The position numbers and the translations under genes were made by a program. A stretch of 64,000 bases of DNA from a virus, in the IMG/VR virus record IMGVR_UViG_3300036985_002246, positions 64,001 through 128,000 of that record; one strand, 5' to 3'. The notes under the pieces were generated by a model. That model saw only the letters and a list, made by a program, of their open reading frames with translations, had not been told where the DNA came from and ran no database searches. Below are positions 2,813 to 42,746 of the stretch, in pieces (position 1 is the first letter of the stretch; every line of letters starts with the position of its first letter).

Positions 2813-5800
2813 ATGGCTGTCATTCCGCTGAAGGTCATTACCTCGGGCTCGACCAACCAGTTTGGCGTCTCAGACGAACTCGGTGTGCTCGGGGTTGACG
2901 CCCGTGTGGCGGGACCCCTCACGATCGGCAGCACCGTCGCGACCTCACTCGTCGTGAATGGAGCGGCAGTCACCCAGGTGAGCGTGGGCGTTGGCGGGGG
3001 CACCGTCCTCAACATTCCCTCGGACAGTGCCTTCAACGTCACGGCGGGCAACAACGGCACGGCTGGCAGCCAAGTCAATCTCGTGGCCGGTGACGGCGTC
3101 TCGGGTGCCGGTGGCACTGTTTTCGTCACGGCGGGCGCGGGCGCGGGCGCGGGGAACGGCGGCGGTATCAACCTGGCGGCTGGCCTCGCCTTGACAGGTT
3201 CTCCGGGCTCTGTGGTGGCTGGCGCAGGCAGCACACTGGCAGGAACACAGCCTGGCGGCAATATCCAGTTGTCTGGTGGTGCAAGCGTGGGCGGTGCAGG
3301 TGGTCCGGTCACTCTGACGGGTGGCCTCACGACTGCTGGAGCCTCTGCGGCAGGAGCGGTCAGTCTGACCGGCGGGTCCAACAACGGAGTCTACTCCGCC
3401 GACTTCGGCAGCAGCCTCGCCTTCTCTTCTCCGACGGTCACGCTGACACGAGCGACTGGAACATGGACCGGCGCTGACGTAGGTCGCACGATCCGTATCT
3501 CTGGTGCTGCTGCACCCGGCAACAACGGCGACTTCGTGATCTTGACGAACCCCGCAGGCAACCAGGTCACCTGGGACAACCTCGCTGGCGGCGCTTCCGA
3601 GCCAGGGTACGCTGGGTACTGGGAAGTTCTGGGCACAGGGGCCGCAGGCAACGTCACTCTCACGGGCGGTGGCACCACCCGCCTCGGCAACGGTGGCAGC
3701 GTCCTGCTGACAGGCGGTACCTCGACGATCAGCAACGGAGGGCCGATCACGCTCACTGCGGGCCTTGGTGGCTCGGCTGGTGTTGGCGGCGACATCAGCC
3801 TCACTGCTGGTGCGACTACCACCGAAGACAACGACGGCGGGTATGTCAATATCTACGGCGGGAATTCCACCAATGCAATCTCGGCCTACGGCGGCGGGAT
3901 TGGGCTCTATGCTGGTGAGCAGACGGACCCAGCCGCCACAGGTAGCGGTGGCCCTGTATCCATTCAGGGTGGGACTGCTCAAGGTGTGGGTGGGACCGGC
4001 GGCGGTATCACACTGATTGCCGGATCGGGTTCCATCGGCGGGGGTCTCTCTGTCACGGGAGGCTACGCTACCGAAGGTGTTGGTGGGCCTATCAGTCTGG
4101 AAGGTGGTGTCGGTGGTTTCACCCCAGGCAGCAATGGCGGTGCAATCACTTTGGTGTCTGGTCAGGCTGTCAATGGCACTGGTGTTAGTGGTGCCATTTC
4201 GCTGACTGGAGGTACCAACAACGGCTATTTCTCCAGCGGAACCGCTGGGATTGCCTCGGTGCTTGGAACGACCACGCTGACAAGTGACGCTGGGACGCCC
4301 TTCTCAGGGCTCGACGTGGGCCGCCGGATTCGCATTCAGGGCGCAACTGACGTGCTCAACAACGGCGACTTCGTGATTCTCACGGTGGACGGCGGTGGGG
4401 CATGGGTCACATACGCCAACGCCTCGGCTGGAGCCGACCAGGCTTCAGGGGCACCATGGTACGTTCTGGGTCAGGGTGCCGCCGGGTCAGTCAATATCGG
4501 GGGTGGCGCGCACGCCGCCAACGGTAACGGTGGTGGTGTTTCCCTGTCGGGTGGTGACTCGCTGCATAAGCTGCCTGGTGCCACAACGATCACAACCCCG
4601 CGAAGTGCCGACACCAGTGCAATCACTGCGGGTCCGGCCCTCACGCTCACCCAGTCAGGGGCGAATGGCGCAACCACGAGCCTCTTCTCGGGGACTGTCG
4701 ATCCGACCGCAAGCGGTGGCGTCGTCGCGAACGCAGGCTCCCTCTACCTGCGGAGCGCAGGCGAACTCTGGGTCAAGACGGCAGGGACCTGGGTCAAGGC
4801 GGCCACTGGGGCTGCTGCCGACCTCCAGGCTACCTACGTCGTAGGCAACACGATCTCGGTGACCGACGCAGAGGGAATCGTAGCCCTCACTGCTGCGGCA
4901 GCTTCGACCGTGAGCGTGCTCTCGGTCACCTCGGCGTCCTCCTCGACCTCTGCTGCACTCCTCGTCAACGGATTGGGGACCAGCGCAGGCGGCAACGCCC
5001 TCCAGGTGCAGAACAAGAGCGCCGACGTACTCAGGATCGACCACAGCGGCAACTTCGTCGTTGCGGGAACGGCTGGCACGGGAGCAGTTGACGGAAGCTA
5101 CGTCCAGATCGCAGGCGGGACCGGCTACACGAATATCACCGACACGGGAGCCGGTGGTGGCGTCACTATCCAGGGAGGTTCAACCCTCCTTGGAACCTTC
5201 GGTGGCTCCGTTCAGATCAGTGGTGGCCCTCAGATCGGTGGCACTGGCGTTGGCACGGGCGGGAATGTCACCCTCACGGGTGGCAACACCGGCAACACGG
5301 GCCTTCCCGGTGGGATCACGCTCAACTCTCCGCGCAACGCCACGACGAACCTCGGGTCGCGTGTTGGCCCGGCACTCACGCTCTCACAGAGCGGAACTGG
5401 TGGCACCACGATCCATGTGTTTGCAGGCTCCGCAGACCCCCGCACGGGCTCCGGAATCGTCGCCAACGCGGGCTCCCTGTTCCACCGGATCGTCAGCAGC
5501 ACGACCGGCGAACTGTACCTCAAGACCACGCAAGGCACGGCCACGGCTTGGAGCCCGCTCTCGATCCCGACGACCGTTCCGGTCACGGCCTTCACGACGA
5601 GCACCGCGACCACTGGTCAGGTCGTGAAGGTCACCGCAGCCGACACGCTGGCTGCGGCCTTCGCAACCAGTGGTGAGATCTCGACGATCGGGATCCAGAT
5701 CAACAGTGCCACCCCGTACCAGGTCGTCTGCTCCGGTCGCGTCACGGGGCTCCTCGACGACCTCGGTGCAGCACTGACCCCAGGTGCTCGGTACTACCTG

Positions 5801-36351: not shown

Positions 36352-37323
36352 ATGACTGTCTCGCTCCTCTGGCGCACGGACGTACACCTGTCAGACCAAA
36401 CGCCCCGGTCTCGCAAGGACGATTGGACCGCGACCGTTCTGGGCAAGCTCGCTCAGATTGGTGACCTCGCCCGCAAGCTCAAGGTGGACGGCGTTCTGGA
36501 CGGCGGGGACTTCTTCGACCTGAAGAGCCCGACCCGGAACTCCCACGCGCTCATTCAGAGGGTGCTCTCGGTACACCGTGGCTACCCGTGCCCGGTCTAC
36601 GGGAACGTCGGGAACCACGACTGCGTCTACGGGGACTACTCGTTCCTGCCCCAGCAGCCGCTCGGGGTGCTCTACGAGTCGGGTGCCTTCCGGCGCTGCT
36701 ACGACGAGCACGAGGCGGTCTTCACCTCGAAGGGGGAGACAGTGAGGGTCGTGGGTGTGCCCTACCACGGGACCAAGTACGACCTCGACCGGTTCACTCG
36801 GATCAAGAAGGGCAGCGAGGACCACCTCGTGGTGGTCGCCCATGTGTTGGCGTCGCCGACCGGGGGCACGCTGTTCGAGTCGGAGGACGTGCTCAAGTAC
36901 GCCGACCTCGACACCTTCGACGGGGACGTATTCTGCTTCGGTCACTGGCACAAGGACCAGGGGATCACCGAGACTCCTGGGGGCAAGACGATCGTGAACG
37001 TCGGCTCCCTCACGCGGGGTTCGCTCTCGCAGGACGACCTCGACCGAGTCCCCTCAGCGGTGCTCCTCAAGTTCGACAAGGCGAAGGTCTCCGCCGAGAA
37101 GATCCCCCTCAGCTACACTGTGGCGTCGGAGGTGTTCGACCTGGAGTCGAGGGACACGGCGAAGTTGCGTGAGGGCATGATCGAGGAGTTCGTCGGGAAC
37201 ATTCAGACGATCCTCACCGCCAAGTCGAACCGCTCGATCCGCGACGCGATCCGCGACCTGCCCAACGTCCCCGACGAGGTGAAAGAGCAGACGCTCCTCT
37301 ATGTGGAGAAGGCGGGAGGGTAG
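36352..37323 (+). CDS. sbcD: SbcD/Mre11-like metallophosphoesterase nuclease
   Basis: TDVHL, GGDFFD, GNHD, VAH, FGHWH, NVGS. Confidence 0.85.
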   Translation: MTVSLLWRTDVHLSDQTPRSRKDDWTATVLGKLAQIGDLARKLKVDGVLDGGDFFDLKSPTRNSHALIQRVLSVHRGYPCPVYGNVGNHDCVYGDYSFLPQQPLGVLYESGAFRRCYDEHEAVFTSKGETVRVVGVPYHGTKYDLDRFTRIKKGSEDHLVVVAHVLASPTGGTLFESEDVLKYADLDTFDGDVFCFGHWHKDQGITETPGGKTIVNVGSLTRGSLSQDDLDRVPSAVLLKFDKAKVSAEKIPLSYTVASEVFDLESRDTAKLREGMIEEFVGNIQTILTAKSNRSIRDAIRDLPNVPDEVKEQTLLYVEKAGG

Positions 37324-37330
37324 GGTCAGC

Positions 37331-38323
37331 ATGGCGCGTGACCCGTCCCTCTGGTGGTCAAATTTGGCGGACTACGAGGAGTGCCCTCAGAAGCTCCTGT
37401 GGAAGCGCGGCCACGGCACGATCGACCTTGGGCGAGGCCCTGGACGTGGGAAGCTCCTGCCTGACACGAAGAAGTCCGCCCACCACGCAGTCATGGGCAA
37501 CGTGCTCTCGGCGGCGATCGAGGCGCTCTACAACGAGGAGTTGTGGCGTGACCCGGCCAATCTCTCGGCTCGGCTGGAGGAACTCACCCGCAAGGAGTTC
37601 AACCTTCAGATCCTGAAGAACCATATCGTCTGGTCCGAGACTCCCGACAGGCCCAAGTGGGACGAGGCAGCCCCGCGTGAGGTGCTGCTCAAGACCTGCC
37701 TGGACGGGATCCTGAACTACCTCAAGACCATGAAGCGGAACCGGCTGCTCGGCCCCTACGCCAAGTCTGAGGTCAATATTTTCGCCCGCGTGGGGGACAC
37801 ACCGATTGCAGGGCGACCTGACCTGATCATTCGTCGAGAGTCACCCAAGCTCTCAATCCTCGACGGGAAGAACTCCTCGACGCCGGGCAAGTACACCAAC
37901 CCGGACCAGCTACGCTGGTACGCGCTCTGCTACTTCCTGGCGCACGGGGAAATGCCTGACCGGCTGGCGTTCGTGTACTTCCGGTTCCCTGAGGGCTGCC
38001 CGCCCAAGGACTACGACGGCGACCCGGAGACGTGGACCGGCCTCGTGGAGGTCTCCTGCACCAAGGGGGACCTCAAGGACCTCTCCCACCGGGCGGTCGA
38101 GACGCACCAGGCGATCACGAAGGAACTCTTCGACCCAACCCCGAGCACGAAGTCCTGCCAGTTCTGCGACTTCCAGGAGGTTTGCCCCGCTCGCATTGAG
38201 CAGAAGGCGGCGAACATTCGCAAGAAGCCGCCGAAGTCGGAGGCAGAGGTGGCGCTCGACTCCTCTACGGGGATCATGGATCTCGGGTTCTTTGGGGGTC
38301 CAGAAGTGGACTCCAAGCCGTAA
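37331..38323 (+). CDS. PD-(D/E)XK RecB/Cas4-like nuclease
   Basis: YEECP, GRPDLII..ILDGKNS, QLRWYA, C-terminal CQFCDFQEVC. Confidence 0.8.
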   Translation: MARDPSLWWSNLADYEECPQKLLWKRGHGTIDLGRGPGRGKLLPDTKKSAHHAVMGNVLSAAIEALYNEELWRDPANLSARLEELTRKEFNLQILKNHIVWSETPDRPKWDEAAPREVLLKTCLDGILNYLKTMKRNRLLGPYAKSEVNIFARVGDTPIAGRPDLIIRRESPKLSILDGKNSSTPGKYTNPDQLRWYALCYFLAHGEMPDRLAFVYFRFPEGCPPKDYDGDPETWTGLVEVSCTKGDLKDLSHRAVETHQAITKELFDPTPSTKSCQFCDFQEVCPARIEQKAANIRKKPPKSEAEVALDSSTGIMDLGFFGGPEVDSKP

Positions 38324-38336
38324 AGTGAGCCGAGTC

Positions 38337-41315
38337 ATGGCTGCCCCCTGGATTCTCCACCACGAAGACTGCCTCAAGACCATGGCTGCCATGGAGGCTG
38401 ACTCTGTGGATTCCGTCGTCTGTGACCCGCCCTACGGCCTGGAGTTCATGGGCAAGGATTGGGACCACGGTGTCCCCGGTGTCGAGTTCTGGATCGAGGC
38501 GCTGCGCGTCGCGAAGCCTGGGGCCTACCTACTCGCGTTCGGCGGGACACGAATGTACCACCGGCTCGCGGTCGCGATCGAAGATGCGGGGTGGGAGATC
38601 CGCGACGCAATCTCGTGGCTCTACGGCTGCTTGAGCGAGGACACAGAGGTCCTCATCAACGGGGCGTGGGTCCACTACCGTAGCGCCATTGAAGGAAGTC
38701 TCGCATTGTGCTACGACGCGGAGAATGACACGTTCTCGCAGCAGCCAGTCGAGCAGCTTTTCGTCTACGACTACGACGACACAGCCTACCGAATCGAGTC
38801 AGATCGCACCGATCAAGTCGTCAGCCGAAATCACCGCTGCATCGTCTGGCGTGACGGACGCTGGGGGTTCGTCCTCGCAGAAGAGGTGGCACGGGAACAG
38901 GAAGCGAGAGTACCCGTTCTCGAAGCCGTGTCAGACGTGCTCGACGCCCTTTCTCTGCTTCAACCGAACGCAGGCAGTTCGCAACCGGCTCTGCGCCGGG
39001 TGTCTGACGAAGGTTCACCGGGGTCCGCGCAAGAAGCCGGTGGCGCTTCGGGAGGGCATGACCGAGATCGCGTGCTCTGTCTGCGGCAAGAGGGTGTGGA
39101 AGCCGCGATCAGCCTTGAAGGTGGTGAAGCTGCCCTCGTGCTCCCGGCGGTGCAACGGGAAGCTGCGCGGGGCGGAGTGGGCGAAGCACGGGCACAAGGG
39201 CTCGGCAGCGGTGAGCCCGGAGGGCCGAGCGTCTGCTGTTGCAAAGATGACCGGCCCGCTCAATCCAGCGTGGAAGGGCGGGGTCACAATCTTCAGGAAG
39301 CACGGGAGCTACAAGGGGGTGCGATACGTTCGGTGCCCGCTGGATTTCCTTCCAATGGCGCGGAAGGACGGCTATGTGATGGAGCACCGTCTGATCGTGG
39401 CGAAGGTGCTGGGTCGCCGTCTCCTTCGGACGGAGACGGTGCATCACGAGGATCACGACCCGACGAACAATGCTCTGTGCAACCTGTCGCTGTTCAAGTC
39501 GAATCGGGACCACAAGTTGTACGAGCATCACGGTTCACCACTTCCGATCTGGCGAGGATCACCCCCCTCCACCTGACCGGGAAGGTGTGGTGCGTGAAGG
39601 TGCCGACCGGAGCTTTCGTCGCTCGTCGTAACGGCAAGGTGTTCGTCACAGGCAACTCAGGCTTCCCGAAGTCGCTCGACGTGAGCAAGGCAATCGACAA
39701 GGCGGCTGGTGCAGAGCGGGAAGTGGTAGGCCAATACAATTTGCCGTCCGATAGTACATCAGGGCATGCCGGAAAGCCTATCCATTCACATGTTGCGGGG
39801 TCTTTTCCACTTGCTCCTACTCCAAACGGAAGAGATATTACAGCCCCCGCCACCGACGCCGCTCGTCAGTGGTCCGGCTGGGGCACCGCGCTCAAGCCCG
39901 CGTGGGAGCCGATCATCGTCGCACGCAAGCCCCTGGGTACACCTGGAACAAACGTCGTGGCCGTGGTAGAATCTGCTCTGAGACGGCAGGGCGTCGTAGG
40001 GGAGATCCTGTGGAAGCCAGACGATGCAAAGGCTGCGGAGAAGTCAAGGAGCACAAGGACTTCGTACTCAACCGAACAGCAGAAAACGGCGGTAACATCT
40101 GCCGCAAATGCCGTCGAGAGAGGGACGCAAAGCACCGATCCGCTAACCGCGACCTCTACAGAGAACGGTGGAATCAGTGGTCCGCCGCGAACCCAGGCAG
40201 GTCCAGAGAACTCGCTCGCGCAAGCGAACGAAAACTACGCAACGAAGTGCTCGACGCCTACGGAGGCGCGTGTGCTTGCTGTGGGGAGCAAGAACGGGAC
40301 TTCCTCACCCTCGACCACATCAACGGCGGGGGTACAGCGCACCGGAGAGCTACACACGGAAAGGTCTACGGGGCCGTCCGAAGAGCAGGATTTCCTCCCG
40401 ACTATCGAATCCTTTGCTGGAATTGCAACTGGGCTTACCGGCTCTATGGCTCATGTCCACATCAAACGAGACAGTGATGGCTTCTTCGTATGGCCTGCGG
40501 GGCTACCCAGGAGCGCAGCAGGGGGCTCGCTAACCGTCGCGGCGAACGTCCTGAAGCATGGCACGGGTGGGATCAATATCGACGGGTGCCGGATCGAAAC
40601 AGCAGACAAACTTCTCATCCATACTCGGGGTGATTCTGGCAAGCGGGATACACGTCTGACCTACTCAGGAGGTGATTTCCCTCTTATTATGGAGCGCAAG
40701 GCCACTGCTGGTCAGGCTTTGGGACGCTGGCCCGCGAACGTGATCCTCGACGAAGAGGCCGCTGCGCTACTGGACGAGCAGACGGGCACGCTCGCGAGTG
40801 GGAAGGCGGCGCGGGGGGGACACCGACGCAAGGATTCGATGGGTGCGACCGGAGGGGCTGCTCTTGGCGGAAACGCCGATGGTTCCCTCCGAGCGGACGA
40901 GAACGCAGGCACGCTGTACGGGGACTCCGGCGGTGCTTCGAGGTTCTTCTACACCGCCAAAGCGAGCCGCTCCGAGCGCACGCACGGCGGGGAAGTGGTC
41001 AATCTGCACCCCACGGTCAAGCCAATCTCCCTCATGCGCTACCTCGTGAGGTTGGTGACGCCTCCCGGCGGCGTGGTGCTCGACCCGTTCTGCGGTTCTG
41101 GCTCAACGGGCGTTGGGGCAATCCTGGAGGGTTTCAACTTCGTGGGTTGTGAGAGGGAACTGGCGTCGGTCGAGACTTCCAGAGCCAGGTTTGAACTCGC
41201 AGTTCTCGTCTCTGTCGGTGGTGTGAAGAACCCCTGGGTGGACGACCTAGAGGTGCCCCCTGACGAGGTTGAGCCCCCGGCTGTCTCCTCAATCGAAGAC
41301 CTGTTCGGCTTTTGA
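38337..41315 (+). CDS. beta-class DNA methyltransferase with an intein and a second in-frame insertion
   Basis: VCDPPYG motif IV and LDPFCGSGSTG motif I; WLYG|SGFPKS split by the intein; ARKPL|TVAANVL split by ~197 codons. Confidence 0.9.
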   Translation: MAAPWILHHEDCLKTMAAMEADSVDSVVCDPPYGLEFMGKDWDHGVPGVEFWIEALRVAKPGAYLLAFGGTRMYHRLAVAIEDAGWEIRDAISWLYGCLSEDTEVLINGAWVHYRSAIEGSLALCYDAENDTFSQQPVEQLFVYDYDDTAYRIESDRTDQVVSRNHRCIVWRDGRWGFVLAEEVAREQEARVPVLEAVSDVLDALSLLQPNAGSSQPALRRVSDEGSPGSAQEAGGASGGHDRDRVLCLRQEGVEAAISLEGGEAALVLPAVQREAARGGVGEARAQGLGSGEPGGPSVCCCKDDRPAQSSVEGRGHNLQEARELQGGAIRSVPAGFPSNGAEGRLCDGAPSDRGEGAGSPSPSDGDGASRGSRPDEQCSVQPVAVQVESGPQVVRASRFTTSDLARITPLHLTGKVWCVKVPTGAFVARRNGKVFVTGNSGFPKSLDVSKAIDKAAGAEREVVGQYNLPSDSTSGHAGKPIHSHVAGSFPLAPTPNGRDITAPATDAARQWSGWGTALKPAWEPIIVARKPLGTPGTNVVAVVESALRRQGVVGEILWKPDDAKAAEKSRSTRTSYSTEQQKTAVTSAANAVERGTQSTDPLTATSTENGGISGPPRTQAGPENSLAQANENYATKCSTPTEARVLAVGSKNGTSSPSTTSTAGVQRTGELHTERSTGPSEEQDFLPTIESFAGIATGLTGSMAHVHIKRDSDGFFVWPAGLPRSAAGGSLTVAANVLKHGTGGINIDGCRIETADKLLIHTRGDSGKRDTRLTYSGGDFPLIMERKATAGQALGRWPANVILDEEAAALLDEQTGTLASGKAARGGHRRKDSMGATGGAALGGNADGSLRADENAGTLYGDSGGASRFFYTAKASRSERTHGGEVVNLHPTVKPISLMRYLVRLVTPPGGVVLDPFCGSGSTGVGAILEGFNFVGCERELASVETSRARFELAVLVSVGGVKNPWVDDLEVPPDEVEPPAVSSIEDLFGF
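38628..39656 (+). mobile_element. intein (343 aa) in the methyltransferase
   Basis: starts CLSEDTEVL, block B SRNHR, block F VWCVKVP, ends VTGN followed by Ser+1. Confidence 0.9.
38851..39576 (+). CDS. HNH endonuclease encoded out of frame inside the intein (start uncertain)
   Basis: CQTC, CSVCG, CSRRC, NPAWKGG, DGYVMEHRLIV..ETVHHEDHDPTNNALCNL in a different frame from the intein. Confidence 0.8.
   Translation: MTDAGGSSSQKRWHGNRKREYPFSKPCQTCSTPFLCFNRTQAVRNRLCAGCLTKVHRGPRKKPVALREGMTEIACSVCGKRVWKPRSALKVVKLPSCSRRCNGKLRGAEWAKHGHKGSAAVSPEGRASAVAKMTGPLNPAWKGGVTIFRKHGSYKGVRYVRCPLDFLPMARKDGYVMEHRLIVAKVLGRRLLRTETVHHEDHDPTNNALCNLSLFKSNRDHKLYEHHGSPLPIWRGSPPST
40010..40477 (+). CDS. HNH endonuclease encoded out of frame inside the methyltransferase insertion
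   Basis: GGGGAG SD plus GTG; CKGC/CRKC, YGGACACCGE..FLTLDHINGGG..ILCWNCN. Confidence 0.85.
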   Translation: MEARRCKGCGEVKEHKDFVLNRTAENGGNICRKCRRERDAKHRSANRDLYRERWNQWSAANPGRSRELARASERKLRNEVLDAYGGACACCGEQERDFLTLDHINGGGTAHRRATHGKVYGAVRRAGFPPDYRILCWNCNWAYRLYGSCPHQTRQ

Positions 41316-41329
41316 GCGTAAGGAGTACC

Positions 41330-41593
41330 GTGGACGTGAAAGCTCGGATCGAAGCTGCAATCAAGCGGCGGGACGACCTCCGCTCTCAGAAGGAGCGGAC
41401 ATTGGGCCGCCTCGAAGAGGCAGAGAAGAATCTCGAAGCTCTCCGCGCCGAGTGCCGGGCGAAGAACCTCGACCCGGACGGTTTGGCCGACACCGTGGCC
41501 AAGCTGGAAAAGGGGCTCCAGACCTCAATCTCGGACCTGGAGACGCAGATCTCCGAGGCCGAGAGTGCCCTCAAACCCTATCTGCAACCGTGA
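41330..41593 (+). CDS. small coiled-coil protein
   Basis: TAAGGAG SD plus GTG; heptad pattern throughout. Confidence 0.75.
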   Translation: MDVKARIEAAIKRRDDLRSQKERTLGRLEEAEKNLEALRAECRAKNLDPDGLADTVAKLEKGLQTSISDLETQISEAESALKPYLQP

Positions 41594-41603
41594 GAGAGCC
41601 CGC

Positions 41604-42746
41604 ATGATCTTCAGCGTATCCAAGCGTGACCTGGAAGCCGCCCTCAAGGTGGTCAGCCACACCGTCTCCATGGGCGGCAGCGACATTTCCGCCCACTACC
41701 TCTTCCGGCAGACCCAGGCTGGGTCGAAGACCCTGGAGGTGCTTGCCTACAACGGGCGGGTGTTCGCGTCCTGCCCGGTGGTCGCCTCCTTCGAGGAGGA
41801 GGGCAAGTCCTTCACGGTCGAGGCGAAGCGGGTCCACTACCTGCTCGGTGCCGTGCCCGACGACGCTGTGCTCAAGGTGTCGAGCACGGGCGCGGGCGAG
41901 GCCACGATCAGCACCGGCAGGGGCAAGAACGTCTTCGCCAGTCTCGACCCCGACCTCTTTCCCTACTGGGACGAGCTTCTCGCGAACTCGACGGGGACGG
42001 CGGTGCTCCCGGCGGACCGGCTGCACGCTGCGCTCTCGCACGCCAAGTCGTTCATTTACGACCAGGAGGCGAAGGCCCCTCACCTCTGCGTGGCGGAGTT
42101 CCGCAAGGGCTGCCTCTACTCGACCGACCAAATGGCCGTGTCGATCGTCAAGGTGGACGGCATGGAGGGGGCTGCGATCCGCATTCTCGGCAAGGACGTG
42201 GGTGCCGTGACCTCCTTCCTGTCCTCCTTCAAGGAGGACCTCGTGGAGGTCTGGGAGTCCGACCGTGCCATGTTCCTCAAGCGTGGGGACGGGGCGGTGT
42301 TCGGCGAGAGCAAGTTCGCCAGCCGCTTCCCCGACATTGCCGTGGACTGGTCGATCGAGGACGACCACTGGATCGACCTCCCACGGGTGGAGATCGCCAA
42401 CGCGGTGAAGTTCCTCGCCTCTGGTGCTCGGTGGGAGGACACGCTGCTGCGAATGATCGTGGGGGACGGGTCCGTGACGCTCTCCATGATCGCGGCCAAC
42501 GGGAAGCCGATCACCCTCGACGTGAAGGCGGTGGCTCAGGGGACTCGGGACGGCGACGTGCCTGCCCTTCCGAAGGAGGGGTTCCCGATCTCCAACGCCT
42601 ACGTCTCGAACCTCCTGGCGAACTTCTCGGGTGAGACGGTCCGCTTCGGGATCTCGAAGAAGGGCAAGGGCGGTTGGGTCCGTGTGAAGGACGAGCGGGG
42701 TAAGGACACCTACCTCACGACCGTCGCATGGCTGAAGACCGCCTAA
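41604..42746 (+). CDS. dnaN: DNA polymerase III beta sliding clamp
   Basis: ~380 aa, three-domain pattern, DPDLFPYW, STDQ, SRFPD, NAYVSNLL. Confidence 0.8.
   Translation: MIFSVSKRDLEAALKVVSHTVSMGGSDISAHYLFRQTQAGSKTLEVLAYNGRVFASCPVVASFEEEGKSFTVEAKRVHYLLGAVPDDAVLKVSSTGAGEATISTGRGKNVFASLDPDLFPYWDELLANSTGTAVLPADRLHAALSHAKSFIYDQEAKAPHLCVAEFRKGCLYSTDQMAVSIVKVDGMEGAAIRILGKDVGAVTSFLSSFKEDLVEVWESDRAMFLKRGDGAVFGESKFASRFPDIAVDWSIEDDHWIDLPRVEIANAVKFLASGARWEDTLLRMIVGDGSVTLSMIAANGKPITLDVKAVAQGTRDGDVPALPKEGFPISNAYVSNLLANFSGETVRFGISKKGKGGWVRVKDERGKDTYLTTVAWLKTA

Follow-up and report, generated by a model that had tools for sequence, protein, structure and literature searches.

A hidden HNH gene in an insert of a viral DNA methylase, a probable second lineage of non-splicing, read-through homing element

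As far as we know, homing endonucleases have been thought to survive in essential or useful genes only inside self-splicing introns or inteins. Free-standing homing endonucleases split or adjoin their target gene, such as mobE in nrdA of Aeromonas phage Aeh1 and the seg and mob genes of T4; such HNH or GIY-YIG genes are inserted, with neither intron nor intein, at conserved positions of phage genes and spread by cleavage and repair, with co-conversion of the flanks. Here we analyse a DNA methyltransferase (methylase) gene in a 64,000-nt stretch of viral DNA (positions 64,001 to 128,000 of the IMG/VR virus record IMGVR_UViG_3300036985_002246, which is 199 kb long; hereafter the window, with a G+C content of ~60%). 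The gene is interrupted by a 197-codon insert in which an HNH nuclease gene lies hidden in another frame, and we consider it very probable that this insert is a mobile homing element, dual-coded and not removed by splicing, through which the host frame is translated.

The closest described system is the ShiLan domain, a 202-codon, stop-free and non-splicing insert in the same methylase family (PMC9957025) that hides a 195-aa HNH protein in the third frame (PMC11855218). It lies between ALK and PAFEP, with T or S replacing P in the invaded allele (PMC9957025 / PMC11855218); no ribosome-binding site was found for its HNH gene and leaderless initiation was proposed (PMC11855218). The same papers put forward a third way for such genes to persist, in which nothing is spliced and the host reads through the parasite in another frame, on the basis of one close-knit element and with little evidence of host-frame use (PMC9957025, PMC11855218). 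The original prediction for our locus had pointed to a precedent of this kind in actinobacteriophages, an out-of-frame HNH gene hidden in a methylase insert of ~200 residues, and the ShiLan domain is that precedent. A hidden out-of-frame nuclease-like open reading frame (ORF) of ~160 aa has also been described in an in-frame insert of the Pacc40 gp60 methylase, with free-standing relatives in Arthrobacter phages (PMC11855218, section 3.6).

Anatomy of the insert and its hidden HNH gene

The host methylase ORF runs over 993 codons, from an ATG at 38337 to a stop at 41315, and is broken by two insertions, an intein (38628-39656) and the 197-codon insert (39942-40532). The features of the latter and of its surroundings are, in window coordinates:

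38337-41315, plus strand: host gene, beta-class N6/N4 DNA methyltransferase (PF01555 at 7.8e-24)
39921-39941, plus strand: left flank ARKPLGT, methylase-only coding, joined directly to TVAANVL in uninvaded homologues
39942-40532, plus strand: putatively mobile insert of 591 nt (197 codons), methylase frame open with 0 stops
39942-40009, plus strand: insN, the segment ahead of the HNH start, methylase frame only, 68 nt (~23 codons), PGTNVVAVVESALRRQGVVGEI
39999-40004, plus strand: Shine-Dalgarno-like GGGGAG, 5 nt ahead of the HNH GTG and inside the methylase codons G-E
40010-40477, plus strand: HNH / endonuclease VII-like ORF of 155 aa, with a GTG start and a TGA stop at 40475-40477
40011-40400, plus strand: the overlap as read in the methylase frame, a linker that is hydrophilic, rich in S/T and poorly conserved, with low amino acid identity and a low predicted local distance difference test (pLDDT) score
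40478-40532, plus strand: insC, the segment past the HNH stop, methylase frame only, 55 nt (19 codons), ending ...DGFFVWPAGLPRSAAGGSL
40533-40592, plus strand: right flank TVAANVLKHGTGGINIDGCR, methylase-only coding, beginning with TVAANVL (40533-40553), amino acid identity 0.75

The borders of the insert can be read from 44 homologues that lack it, in which the span from ALKP to NID measures 32-33 residues versus 229 in the window and the junction is uninterrupted (KPLAGTVAANVL in Arib1 gp59 and KPLISTVAANVL in locus L066). An interruption of about 197 codons after ARKPL(GT), unrelated to an intein, had been predicted from the letters alone, and its coordinates prove exact. The start of the insert (39939-39962) loosely repeats the downstream flank (40530-40553), with x-x-x-N-V-L facing T-V-A-A-N-V-L, and an AAC GTN NTG repeat is found in both segments of all invaded loci; each of the two segments is modelled as a helix. 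This look-alike may represent a target duplication, a structural stand-in for the displaced flank or a protection against self-cleavage. Several tblastn junction matches that seemed to run 35 residues into the insert (Elite2014, Batiatus, and the Caulobacter phage DMCA) turned out to be insert-free genes whose TVAANVL had been aligned to the look-alike start. Read in the methylase frame, the insert matches no Pfam family at E 0.01 or better and no PHROG.

Scanning IMG/VR with the HNH sequence yielded ten loci with embedded copies (L004-L013), to which bacterial assemblies added a contig of Kribbella qitaiheensis (L152) and a metagenome-assembled genome of the PVC group (L153). In L004-L013, the HNH gene lies within a methylase ORF of 629-939 codons that is read at +1 relative to it, the site is KPLxx/TVAxNVL (here and below a slash marks an insertion point), and HNH identity to the window ranges from 92% down to 49%. 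The insert thus occurs at the same site in 12 further loci and is 193-197 codons long throughout. At 37% identity or below, the HNH homologues are free-standing.

The out-of-frame HNH ORF, with its GGGGAG motif and GTG start, had been proposed at these same coordinates and is real by database comparison. Its product matches phrog_2255 (HNH, 7.3e-18), phrog_1035 (endonuclease VII, 4e-12) and phrog_2633 (endonuclease VII, 1.9e-7), and tblastn retrieves an annotated HNH gene of Streptomyces phage Galactica (1e-22) along with free-standing HNH genes annotated in phages of Streptomyces and Arthrobacter (1e-22 to 1e-17); Pfam-A gave no family for the ORF at E 0.01 or better. Nine residues are invariant among 18 HNH homologues (C88, C90, C91, D102, H103, C136, N138, C139, and N140, forming CxCCGE, DH, and CxNCN motifs), and an N-terminal CxxC...CxxC pair is also present in this alignment. 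The catalytic D-H...N residues and the zinc-binding cysteine pairs of the HNH / His-Me finger endonucleases are thereby conserved. An AlphaFold2 model of the protein has a mean pLDDT of 88. With regard to a beta-beta-alpha-metal fold, its weak VIA matches include the Gme HNH nuclease 4H9D (Z 4.4, with a root-mean-square deviation of 4.0 over 66 residues) and T4 EndoVII 1E7L (Z 3.0), the HNH domains of Cas9 and Cas5 are also among the sub-threshold structure matches, and the alignment profile searched against sequences of the PDB reached a best E of only 0.27. In every embedded copy, a purine-rich motif of GGAGA(T/A) type precedes the start codon (ATG, GTG or TTG) with the same spacing. The simplest reading of this constancy is that HNH translation would start internally on the methylase mRNA, in the window from its own Shine-Dalgarno motif and GTG.

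Constraint on the two reading frames

Variation by codon position was examined in a gapless codon alignment of eight loci, the near-identical L004 being dropped from the pairwise counts. The exteins on either side vary mostly at position 3 of the methylase codons (0.60-0.66 versus 0.13-0.30 elsewhere), both in the left flank (0.66 versus 0.30 and 0.22) and in the right one (0.60 versus 0.22 and 0.13). Within the overlap it is position 3 of the HNH codons that varies most (0.54 versus 0.31 and 0.38), and amino acid identity is 0.55 in the HNH frame versus 0.28-0.35 in the methylase frame. The two segments outside the HNH gene follow the methylase codons again, with position 3 at 0.66 versus 0.45 and 0.38 in insN and at 0.70 versus 0.44 and 0.43 in insC. 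Between the window and L004, the overlap contains 30 nucleotide differences, 19/30 of which are synonymous for the HNH protein and 25/30 of which alter a residue in the methylase frame. An HNH frame free of purifying selection would have told against the original prediction; the position-3 peak and the excess of synonymous changes indicate instead that the HNH gene is under purifying selection. The pattern of insN and insC, together with the structural model described below, suggests that the ends of the insert are translated in the methylase frame.

The overlap also differs in composition from free-standing copies of matched G+C content. T occupies HNH position 3 at a frequency of 0.15 in embedded copies versus 0.24 in free-standing ones and, therefore, the linker encoded in the methylase frame is less hydrophobic (a fraction of 0.17 versus 0.30, p 0.013, in a comparison of nine against nine sequences only) and richer in S/T.

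With the methylase read at +1 relative to the HNH gene, NTA or NTG codons followed by A or G would create stops in the methylase frame, and the frame logic of the original prediction, which pointed to NTG+A junctions, was right. Stops in the methylase frame number 0 in 10/10 embedded IMG/VR copies, whose G+C content ranges from 0.46 to 0.62, and none occurs in any of the 12 further loci. By comparison, the equivalent frame of the free-standing homologues has 1-9 stops in nearly all of them, and the third frame of the embedded copies has 1-13 (3-13 in the copies at 46-48% G+C). NTA/NTG codons are correspondingly depleted in the embedded HNH genes (0-6 observed versus 5.6-11.5 expected). Shuffling synonymous codons within each gene was discarded as a null model (P(0 stops) of 0.03-1.0, with one locus unable to form any stop), as it performs poorly on genes already purged of risky codons; we replaced it by a null based on codon usage, with the free-standing homologues as controls. 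Per locus, this null gives P(0) values of 0.002-0.19, and of 0.002-0.017 for the AT-richer loci. The claim that the host frame is held open by selection consequently stands on the relatives, across which the sequence comparison is decisive for such selection; argued from the single sequence, as originally done, it was weak. The window alone yields a P(0 stops) of 0.13-0.19 given its protein and codon usage, which is not significant, and of 0.016 under the generic +1 stop rate of the window genes.

The P(0 stops) of 0.13-0.19 and the ~60% G+C content of the window are what could be said for a methylase killed by the arrival of an HNH gene, its open frame being an accident of high G+C. We find this hardly credible. 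The copies at 46-48% G+C are just as free of stops, with 3-13 in the other frame; the exteins on both sides are under strong purifying selection, the catalytic motifs are intact and the length of the insert is constant. Besides, HNH identities of 49-65% among loci exclude that they are assembly copies of one sequence.

The expected form of the interrupted protein was examined in an AlphaFold2 model of L009, an invaded but intein-free methylase of 662 aa, built on a 54-row alignment. The methylase core is confidently modelled, and Foldseek relates it to CcrM (6PBD), M.BceJIV and M.MboIIA (E 5e-7 to 2e-5) and further to the PvuII and RsrI methylases. The first ~30 residues of the insert (191-220) have pLDDT values of 82-87 and contain a helix (195-205); the ~140 residues overlapping the HNH gene (221-360) are modelled as disordered (pLDDT 27-50); and the last ~27 (361-387, pLDDT 87-90) form a beta-hairpin of two strands (363-366 and 372-374), followed in the right flank by a helix (389-396). 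In the window, the predicted hairpin takes in codons from ~40455, still overlapping the 3' end of the HNH gene. The conserved folded domain of the methylase frame that would have spoken against the original prediction is thus present in part only: its ends (~23 and ~19 codons) are conserved and predicted to fold, and its ~140-residue middle is neither.

These observations are compatible with the following mechanism. The insert would carry two overlapping messages, with translation of the HNH protein beginning within the methylase mRNA, at a Shine-Dalgarno motif and GTG of its own. The nuclease would most likely cut or nick insert-free methylase alleles at the sequence coding KPLxG/TVAANVL, and recombinational repair would then copy the insert and short flanks into the cut alleles, that is, homing. 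As the methylase frame is free of stops, ribosomes would read through it and produce a methylase with a 197-residue internal insertion, composed of a short conserved helix at its start, a hydrophilic disordered linker of ~140 residues that would be a by-product of the HNH codons, and, as its last part, a conserved beta-hairpin. Both folded ends would probably hold the loop aside, at a position that separates the catalytic core from the part recognising the target. Methylase activity would then be retained, at little cost of the parasite to its host.

Could the insert be removed after all, as an RNA intron that escaped recognition, its open frame being incidental, or by protein splicing of an unusual type, which would need the open frame only transiently? 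Phage group I introns commonly carry HNH genes. A resemblance between the 5' end of an insert and the downstream exon is sometimes seen with them and was noted for ShiLan (PMC11855218), and the Thr that always occupies position +1 after the insert might serve as a splicing nucleophile. That Thr, however, is equally conserved in uninvaded genes. Rfam, searched over 38000-41500 at E up to 1, returned no family and no ribozyme core was found there, and only ~123 nt of the insert lie outside the ORF. Intein features sought in the insert are likewise missing: the first residue varies among P/L/E/A/S and the last among L/P/N, there is no His-Asn, and no Hint or intein Pfam domain matches, whereas the true intein in the same gene is easily recognised. 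Finally, an intron would need neither the stop-free frame in 10/10 embedded IMG/VR copies, nor a fixed length of 3n, nor the position-3 pattern of the insert ends. Removal by splicing is, in our judgement, quite improbable, and we retain a homing element that is read through.

Mobility, distribution and other hidden genes

A tree of 53 methylases based on the exteins only, eight of them invaded, shows a scattered distribution of the insert. The eight invaded genes require seven changes on this tree, equal to random labels; the sister of the window gene is the uninvaded L066 (support 99), and an approximately unbiased test rejects a single invaded clade (delta lnL, the log-likelihood difference, 343; p 5e-85). 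For 7/9 invaded methylases compared, the nearest relative within the set is an uninvaded gene. HNH identity also exceeds extein identity, with 0.93 versus 0.66 between the window and L004 and 1.00 versus 0.75 between L010 and L013. The first of these pairs shares a sharply bounded stretch:

39834-40596, plus strand: high-identity island between the window and L004, comprising the insert with ~108 nt of left and ~64 nt of right flank (blastn, 89.8% over 763 nt)

Within it the insert has 92% nucleotide identity, and the rest of the gene aligns in patches only (70-83%); a value of ~45% flank identity from a gapless 300-nt comparison of the same two sequences was an indel artefact and was replaced by blastn. 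The 763-nt island resembles a tract of co-conversion, such as homing would be expected to leave when the flanks are converted along with the insert.

Several points weigh against this interpretation. The uninvaded set was picked as the best matches to the window, which could exaggerate the scatter on the tree, and the embedded copies are mutually related, so that counts of loci are not counts of independent events. The stop-free frame of the window is not significant when taken alone, and the linker comparison is small. The structure searches with the HNH model mostly list HNH nucleases on top, all below trust thresholds (best Foldseek E 0.05, VIA Z 4.4 at most). The contact between the two ends of the insert is a presumed one, and an unfamiliar splicing chemistry or a wholly unknown ribozyme would be compatible with the sequence. 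Read-through translation, the activity of an insert-bearing methylase, an internal start of the HNH protein and cleavage at a specific site are, each of them, inferred.

Concerning the gene itself, the remaining features are:

38424-38435, plus strand: motif IV of the methylase, DPPY (residue 30)
38628-39656, plus strand: intein, CLSEDTEV...FVTGN/S at WLYG/S, with its own out-of-frame HNH ORF (38689-39576)
41082-41111, plus strand: motif I of the methylase, DPFCGSGSTG (residue 916)

Both motifs are intact and show the beta-class order, with motif IV (DPPY) N-terminal to motif I (FxGxG). The closest phage relatives of the methylase are those of the mycobacteriophages Arib1 (gp59), Cjw1 (gp100/101), ShiLan (gp65) and Dorothy, at 46-57% identity, and megablast of the whole host gene against 50,697 phage records gave zero matches. 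The N-terminal region of the intein is 50-57% identical to the methylase inteins of Dorothy and ShiLan, and its HNH ORF matches phrog_15471 (2e-15) at a frame offset of 1. An intein with the same arrangement, including an out-of-frame HNH gene, was observed at L122:1356-2201. At L005:3289-3870, an HNH gene homologous to that of the window intein (phrog_20891, 4e-15) is carried by an in-frame insert that no intein surrounds; nucleases of one type therefore travel with a splicing vehicle as well as without one.

The original prediction had called the locus a hotspot on account of two dual-coded parasites in one gene, the intein with its HNH gene being one of them, and the family as a whole makes this stronger than stated. 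Hidden HNH ORFs occur in the methylases of IMG/VR at five places or more: in a loop that follows GFPKS, behind ARFF, and at the sites of the intein, of the ShiLan domain and of the insert described here. The single methylase ORF of L005 contains three of them. Third-frame HNH ORFs after GFPKS..D or ARFF include L116:3232-3867 (phrog_1271, 5e-22), L005:4856-5377 (phrog_2340, 3e-14) and L153:3946-4389 (phrog_1271, 4e-11). This suggests that hiding by read-through is common in this methylase family.

A nuclease so closely nested might also be a working partner of the methylase, as a restriction-like or phage-exclusion enzyme beside a protective one, the pair benefiting the phage; such co-option has been raised before (PMC11855218). 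Nesting would ensure that both are inherited together, and the purifying selection on the HNH gene and the conservation of the insert ends in the methylase frame agree with it. Nevertheless, hidden HNH genes of unrelated types occupy five or more places in one methylase family, up to three per gene, and repeated parasitic invasion fits this better. The scattered distribution and the restriction of the high-identity island to insert and flanks point the same way, the nearest HNH relatives are ordinary free-standing phage genes and most family members are insert-free. We regard a functional partnership as unlikely and a parasitic homing element as the better account.

A wider proposition is that read-through without splicing serves homing endonucleases generally as a third vehicle, beside introns and inteins, and has its own protein adaptor; we advance it only tentatively, as a possibility slightly short of even. 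Under it, the helix and hairpin ends would move together with the nuclease gene and act as a clasp, looping the linker out of the host enzyme, and the methylase family would have been colonised independently at five positions or more by unrelated hidden HNH genes, up to three per gene and, in one case, two in tandem 14 codons apart.

Some further observations concern the family and the neighbourhood of the gene. ShiLan-type inserts, with site ALK/P, a third-frame HNH gene and a ...GRFVRSDGYV...EHR...HH.N motif, were seen in the uncultured viral contigs L139, L136, L095, L131, L098, and L073; the range of the ShiLan element therefore extends beyond mycobacteriophages. In mycobacteriophage Cjw1 (L002:1903-3169), the methylase is annotated as two genes, gp100 and gp101, with a frameshift exactly between ALK and VVARKPL, within the 14-codon stretch bounded by both homing sites; a genuine split of the gene, a scar left by repair and an early sequencing error are possible causes. 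An extra in-frame insert of ~90 residues lies between KAxDK and AEREV in L004, L007, L008, and L010 (...GKSRGQIDDECGF..., ...TGLKQQQINNIIGKSDVGSHYLRLDQP...), with no long alternate-frame ORF under it in L004 or L008. In the window, the neighbouring genes (36352-38323 and 41565-42746) resemble, from their ORF translations only, an SbcD/Mre11-type phosphoesterase, a PD-(D/E)XK Cas4-like nuclease whose ORF ends just upstream of the methylase, and a DNA polymerase III beta-clamp homologue, which would place the methylase in a replication and recombination module.

The phenomenon appears widespread among uncultured phages and also reaches the prophages of distantly related bacteria, with a single methylase family as its main target. 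Genes of this kind are mis-annotated as oversized methylases and gene callers miss the nucleases within them. Their HNH enzymes are candidate new site-specific nucleases, and the locus offers a clean natural case of overprinting for studies of dual-frame constraint.

Comparison with the described systems

The window element resembles the ShiLan domain in its host methylase family, in being an in-frame, stop-free insert of ~200 codons without intron or intein motifs, in a 5' end that echoes the downstream flank, in its scatter on the methylase tree and in occurring in genes that may also carry an intein; its frame offset of 2 is also that of ShiLan-type elements. In other respects the two differ. 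The ShiLan site is ALK/PAFEP whereas that of the window element, KPLxx/TVAANVL, lies 14 codons downstream: ShiLan gp65 reads ALK/PSYEP...GGRN/TAFEPIVVARKPLAGTVAANVL and the window ALKPAWEPIIVARKPLGT/.../TVAANVL. Their HNH proteins are unrelated (BLASTP E 1.2, nothing significant by tblastn) and belong to disjoint PHROG families (20891/14913/1271 for the ShiLan type, 2255/1035/2633 for the window). The ShiLan HNH gene nearly fills its insert, with a start 18 nt from the beginning and a stop within the final 4 nt, whereas that of the window is flanked by 68 and 55 nt of methylase-only coding predicted to fold; and no ribosome-binding site was found for the former, in contrast with the conserved Shine-Dalgarno motif of the latter. 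Site, unrelated HNH proteins and disjoint families together rule out that the window element is the ShiLan domain itself.

Both elements occur in tandem, 14 codons apart, in one methylase gene of Kribbella qitaiheensis (L152:1613-4153, NZ_JBHSKE010000077.1), as HNH ORFs at 2371-2883 and 3001-3489, each in the third frame; this co-occurrence in a single gene also marks them as separate. The gene probably lies on a prophage and, belonging to a cultured actinobacterium, is a candidate experimental system.

The Pacc40 element resides in a different, poorly alignable methylase, and tblastn of the window HNH or insert against the Pacc40 locus gave a best E of 0.16-0.4, so that we rejected identity with it. 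Frame-3 endonuclease VII-like/HNH genes borne by inteins, the class to which the window intein belongs, likewise overlap uninformative codons of a host frame that stays open, but they splice out with true inteins, unlike the window insert, which has no splicing domain. Free-standing homing endonucleases leave the host gene intact alongside or split it in two, whereas here the host polypeptide would stay single, with the parasite overprinted on it. None of the 45 phage-genome records matching the window HNH carries it inside a methylase.

What the locus adds to the ShiLan work is an independent lineage whose copies are deeply divergent and, for this reason, provide direct evolutionary evidence of selection on both frames: stop avoidance down to 46% G+C, frame-specific codon positions, hydrophobic depletion of the linker, and conserved ends predicted to fold. 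By these comparisons, the window element is a separate, second lineage of a ShiLan-like kind, the kind itself having already been published in 2023-2025.

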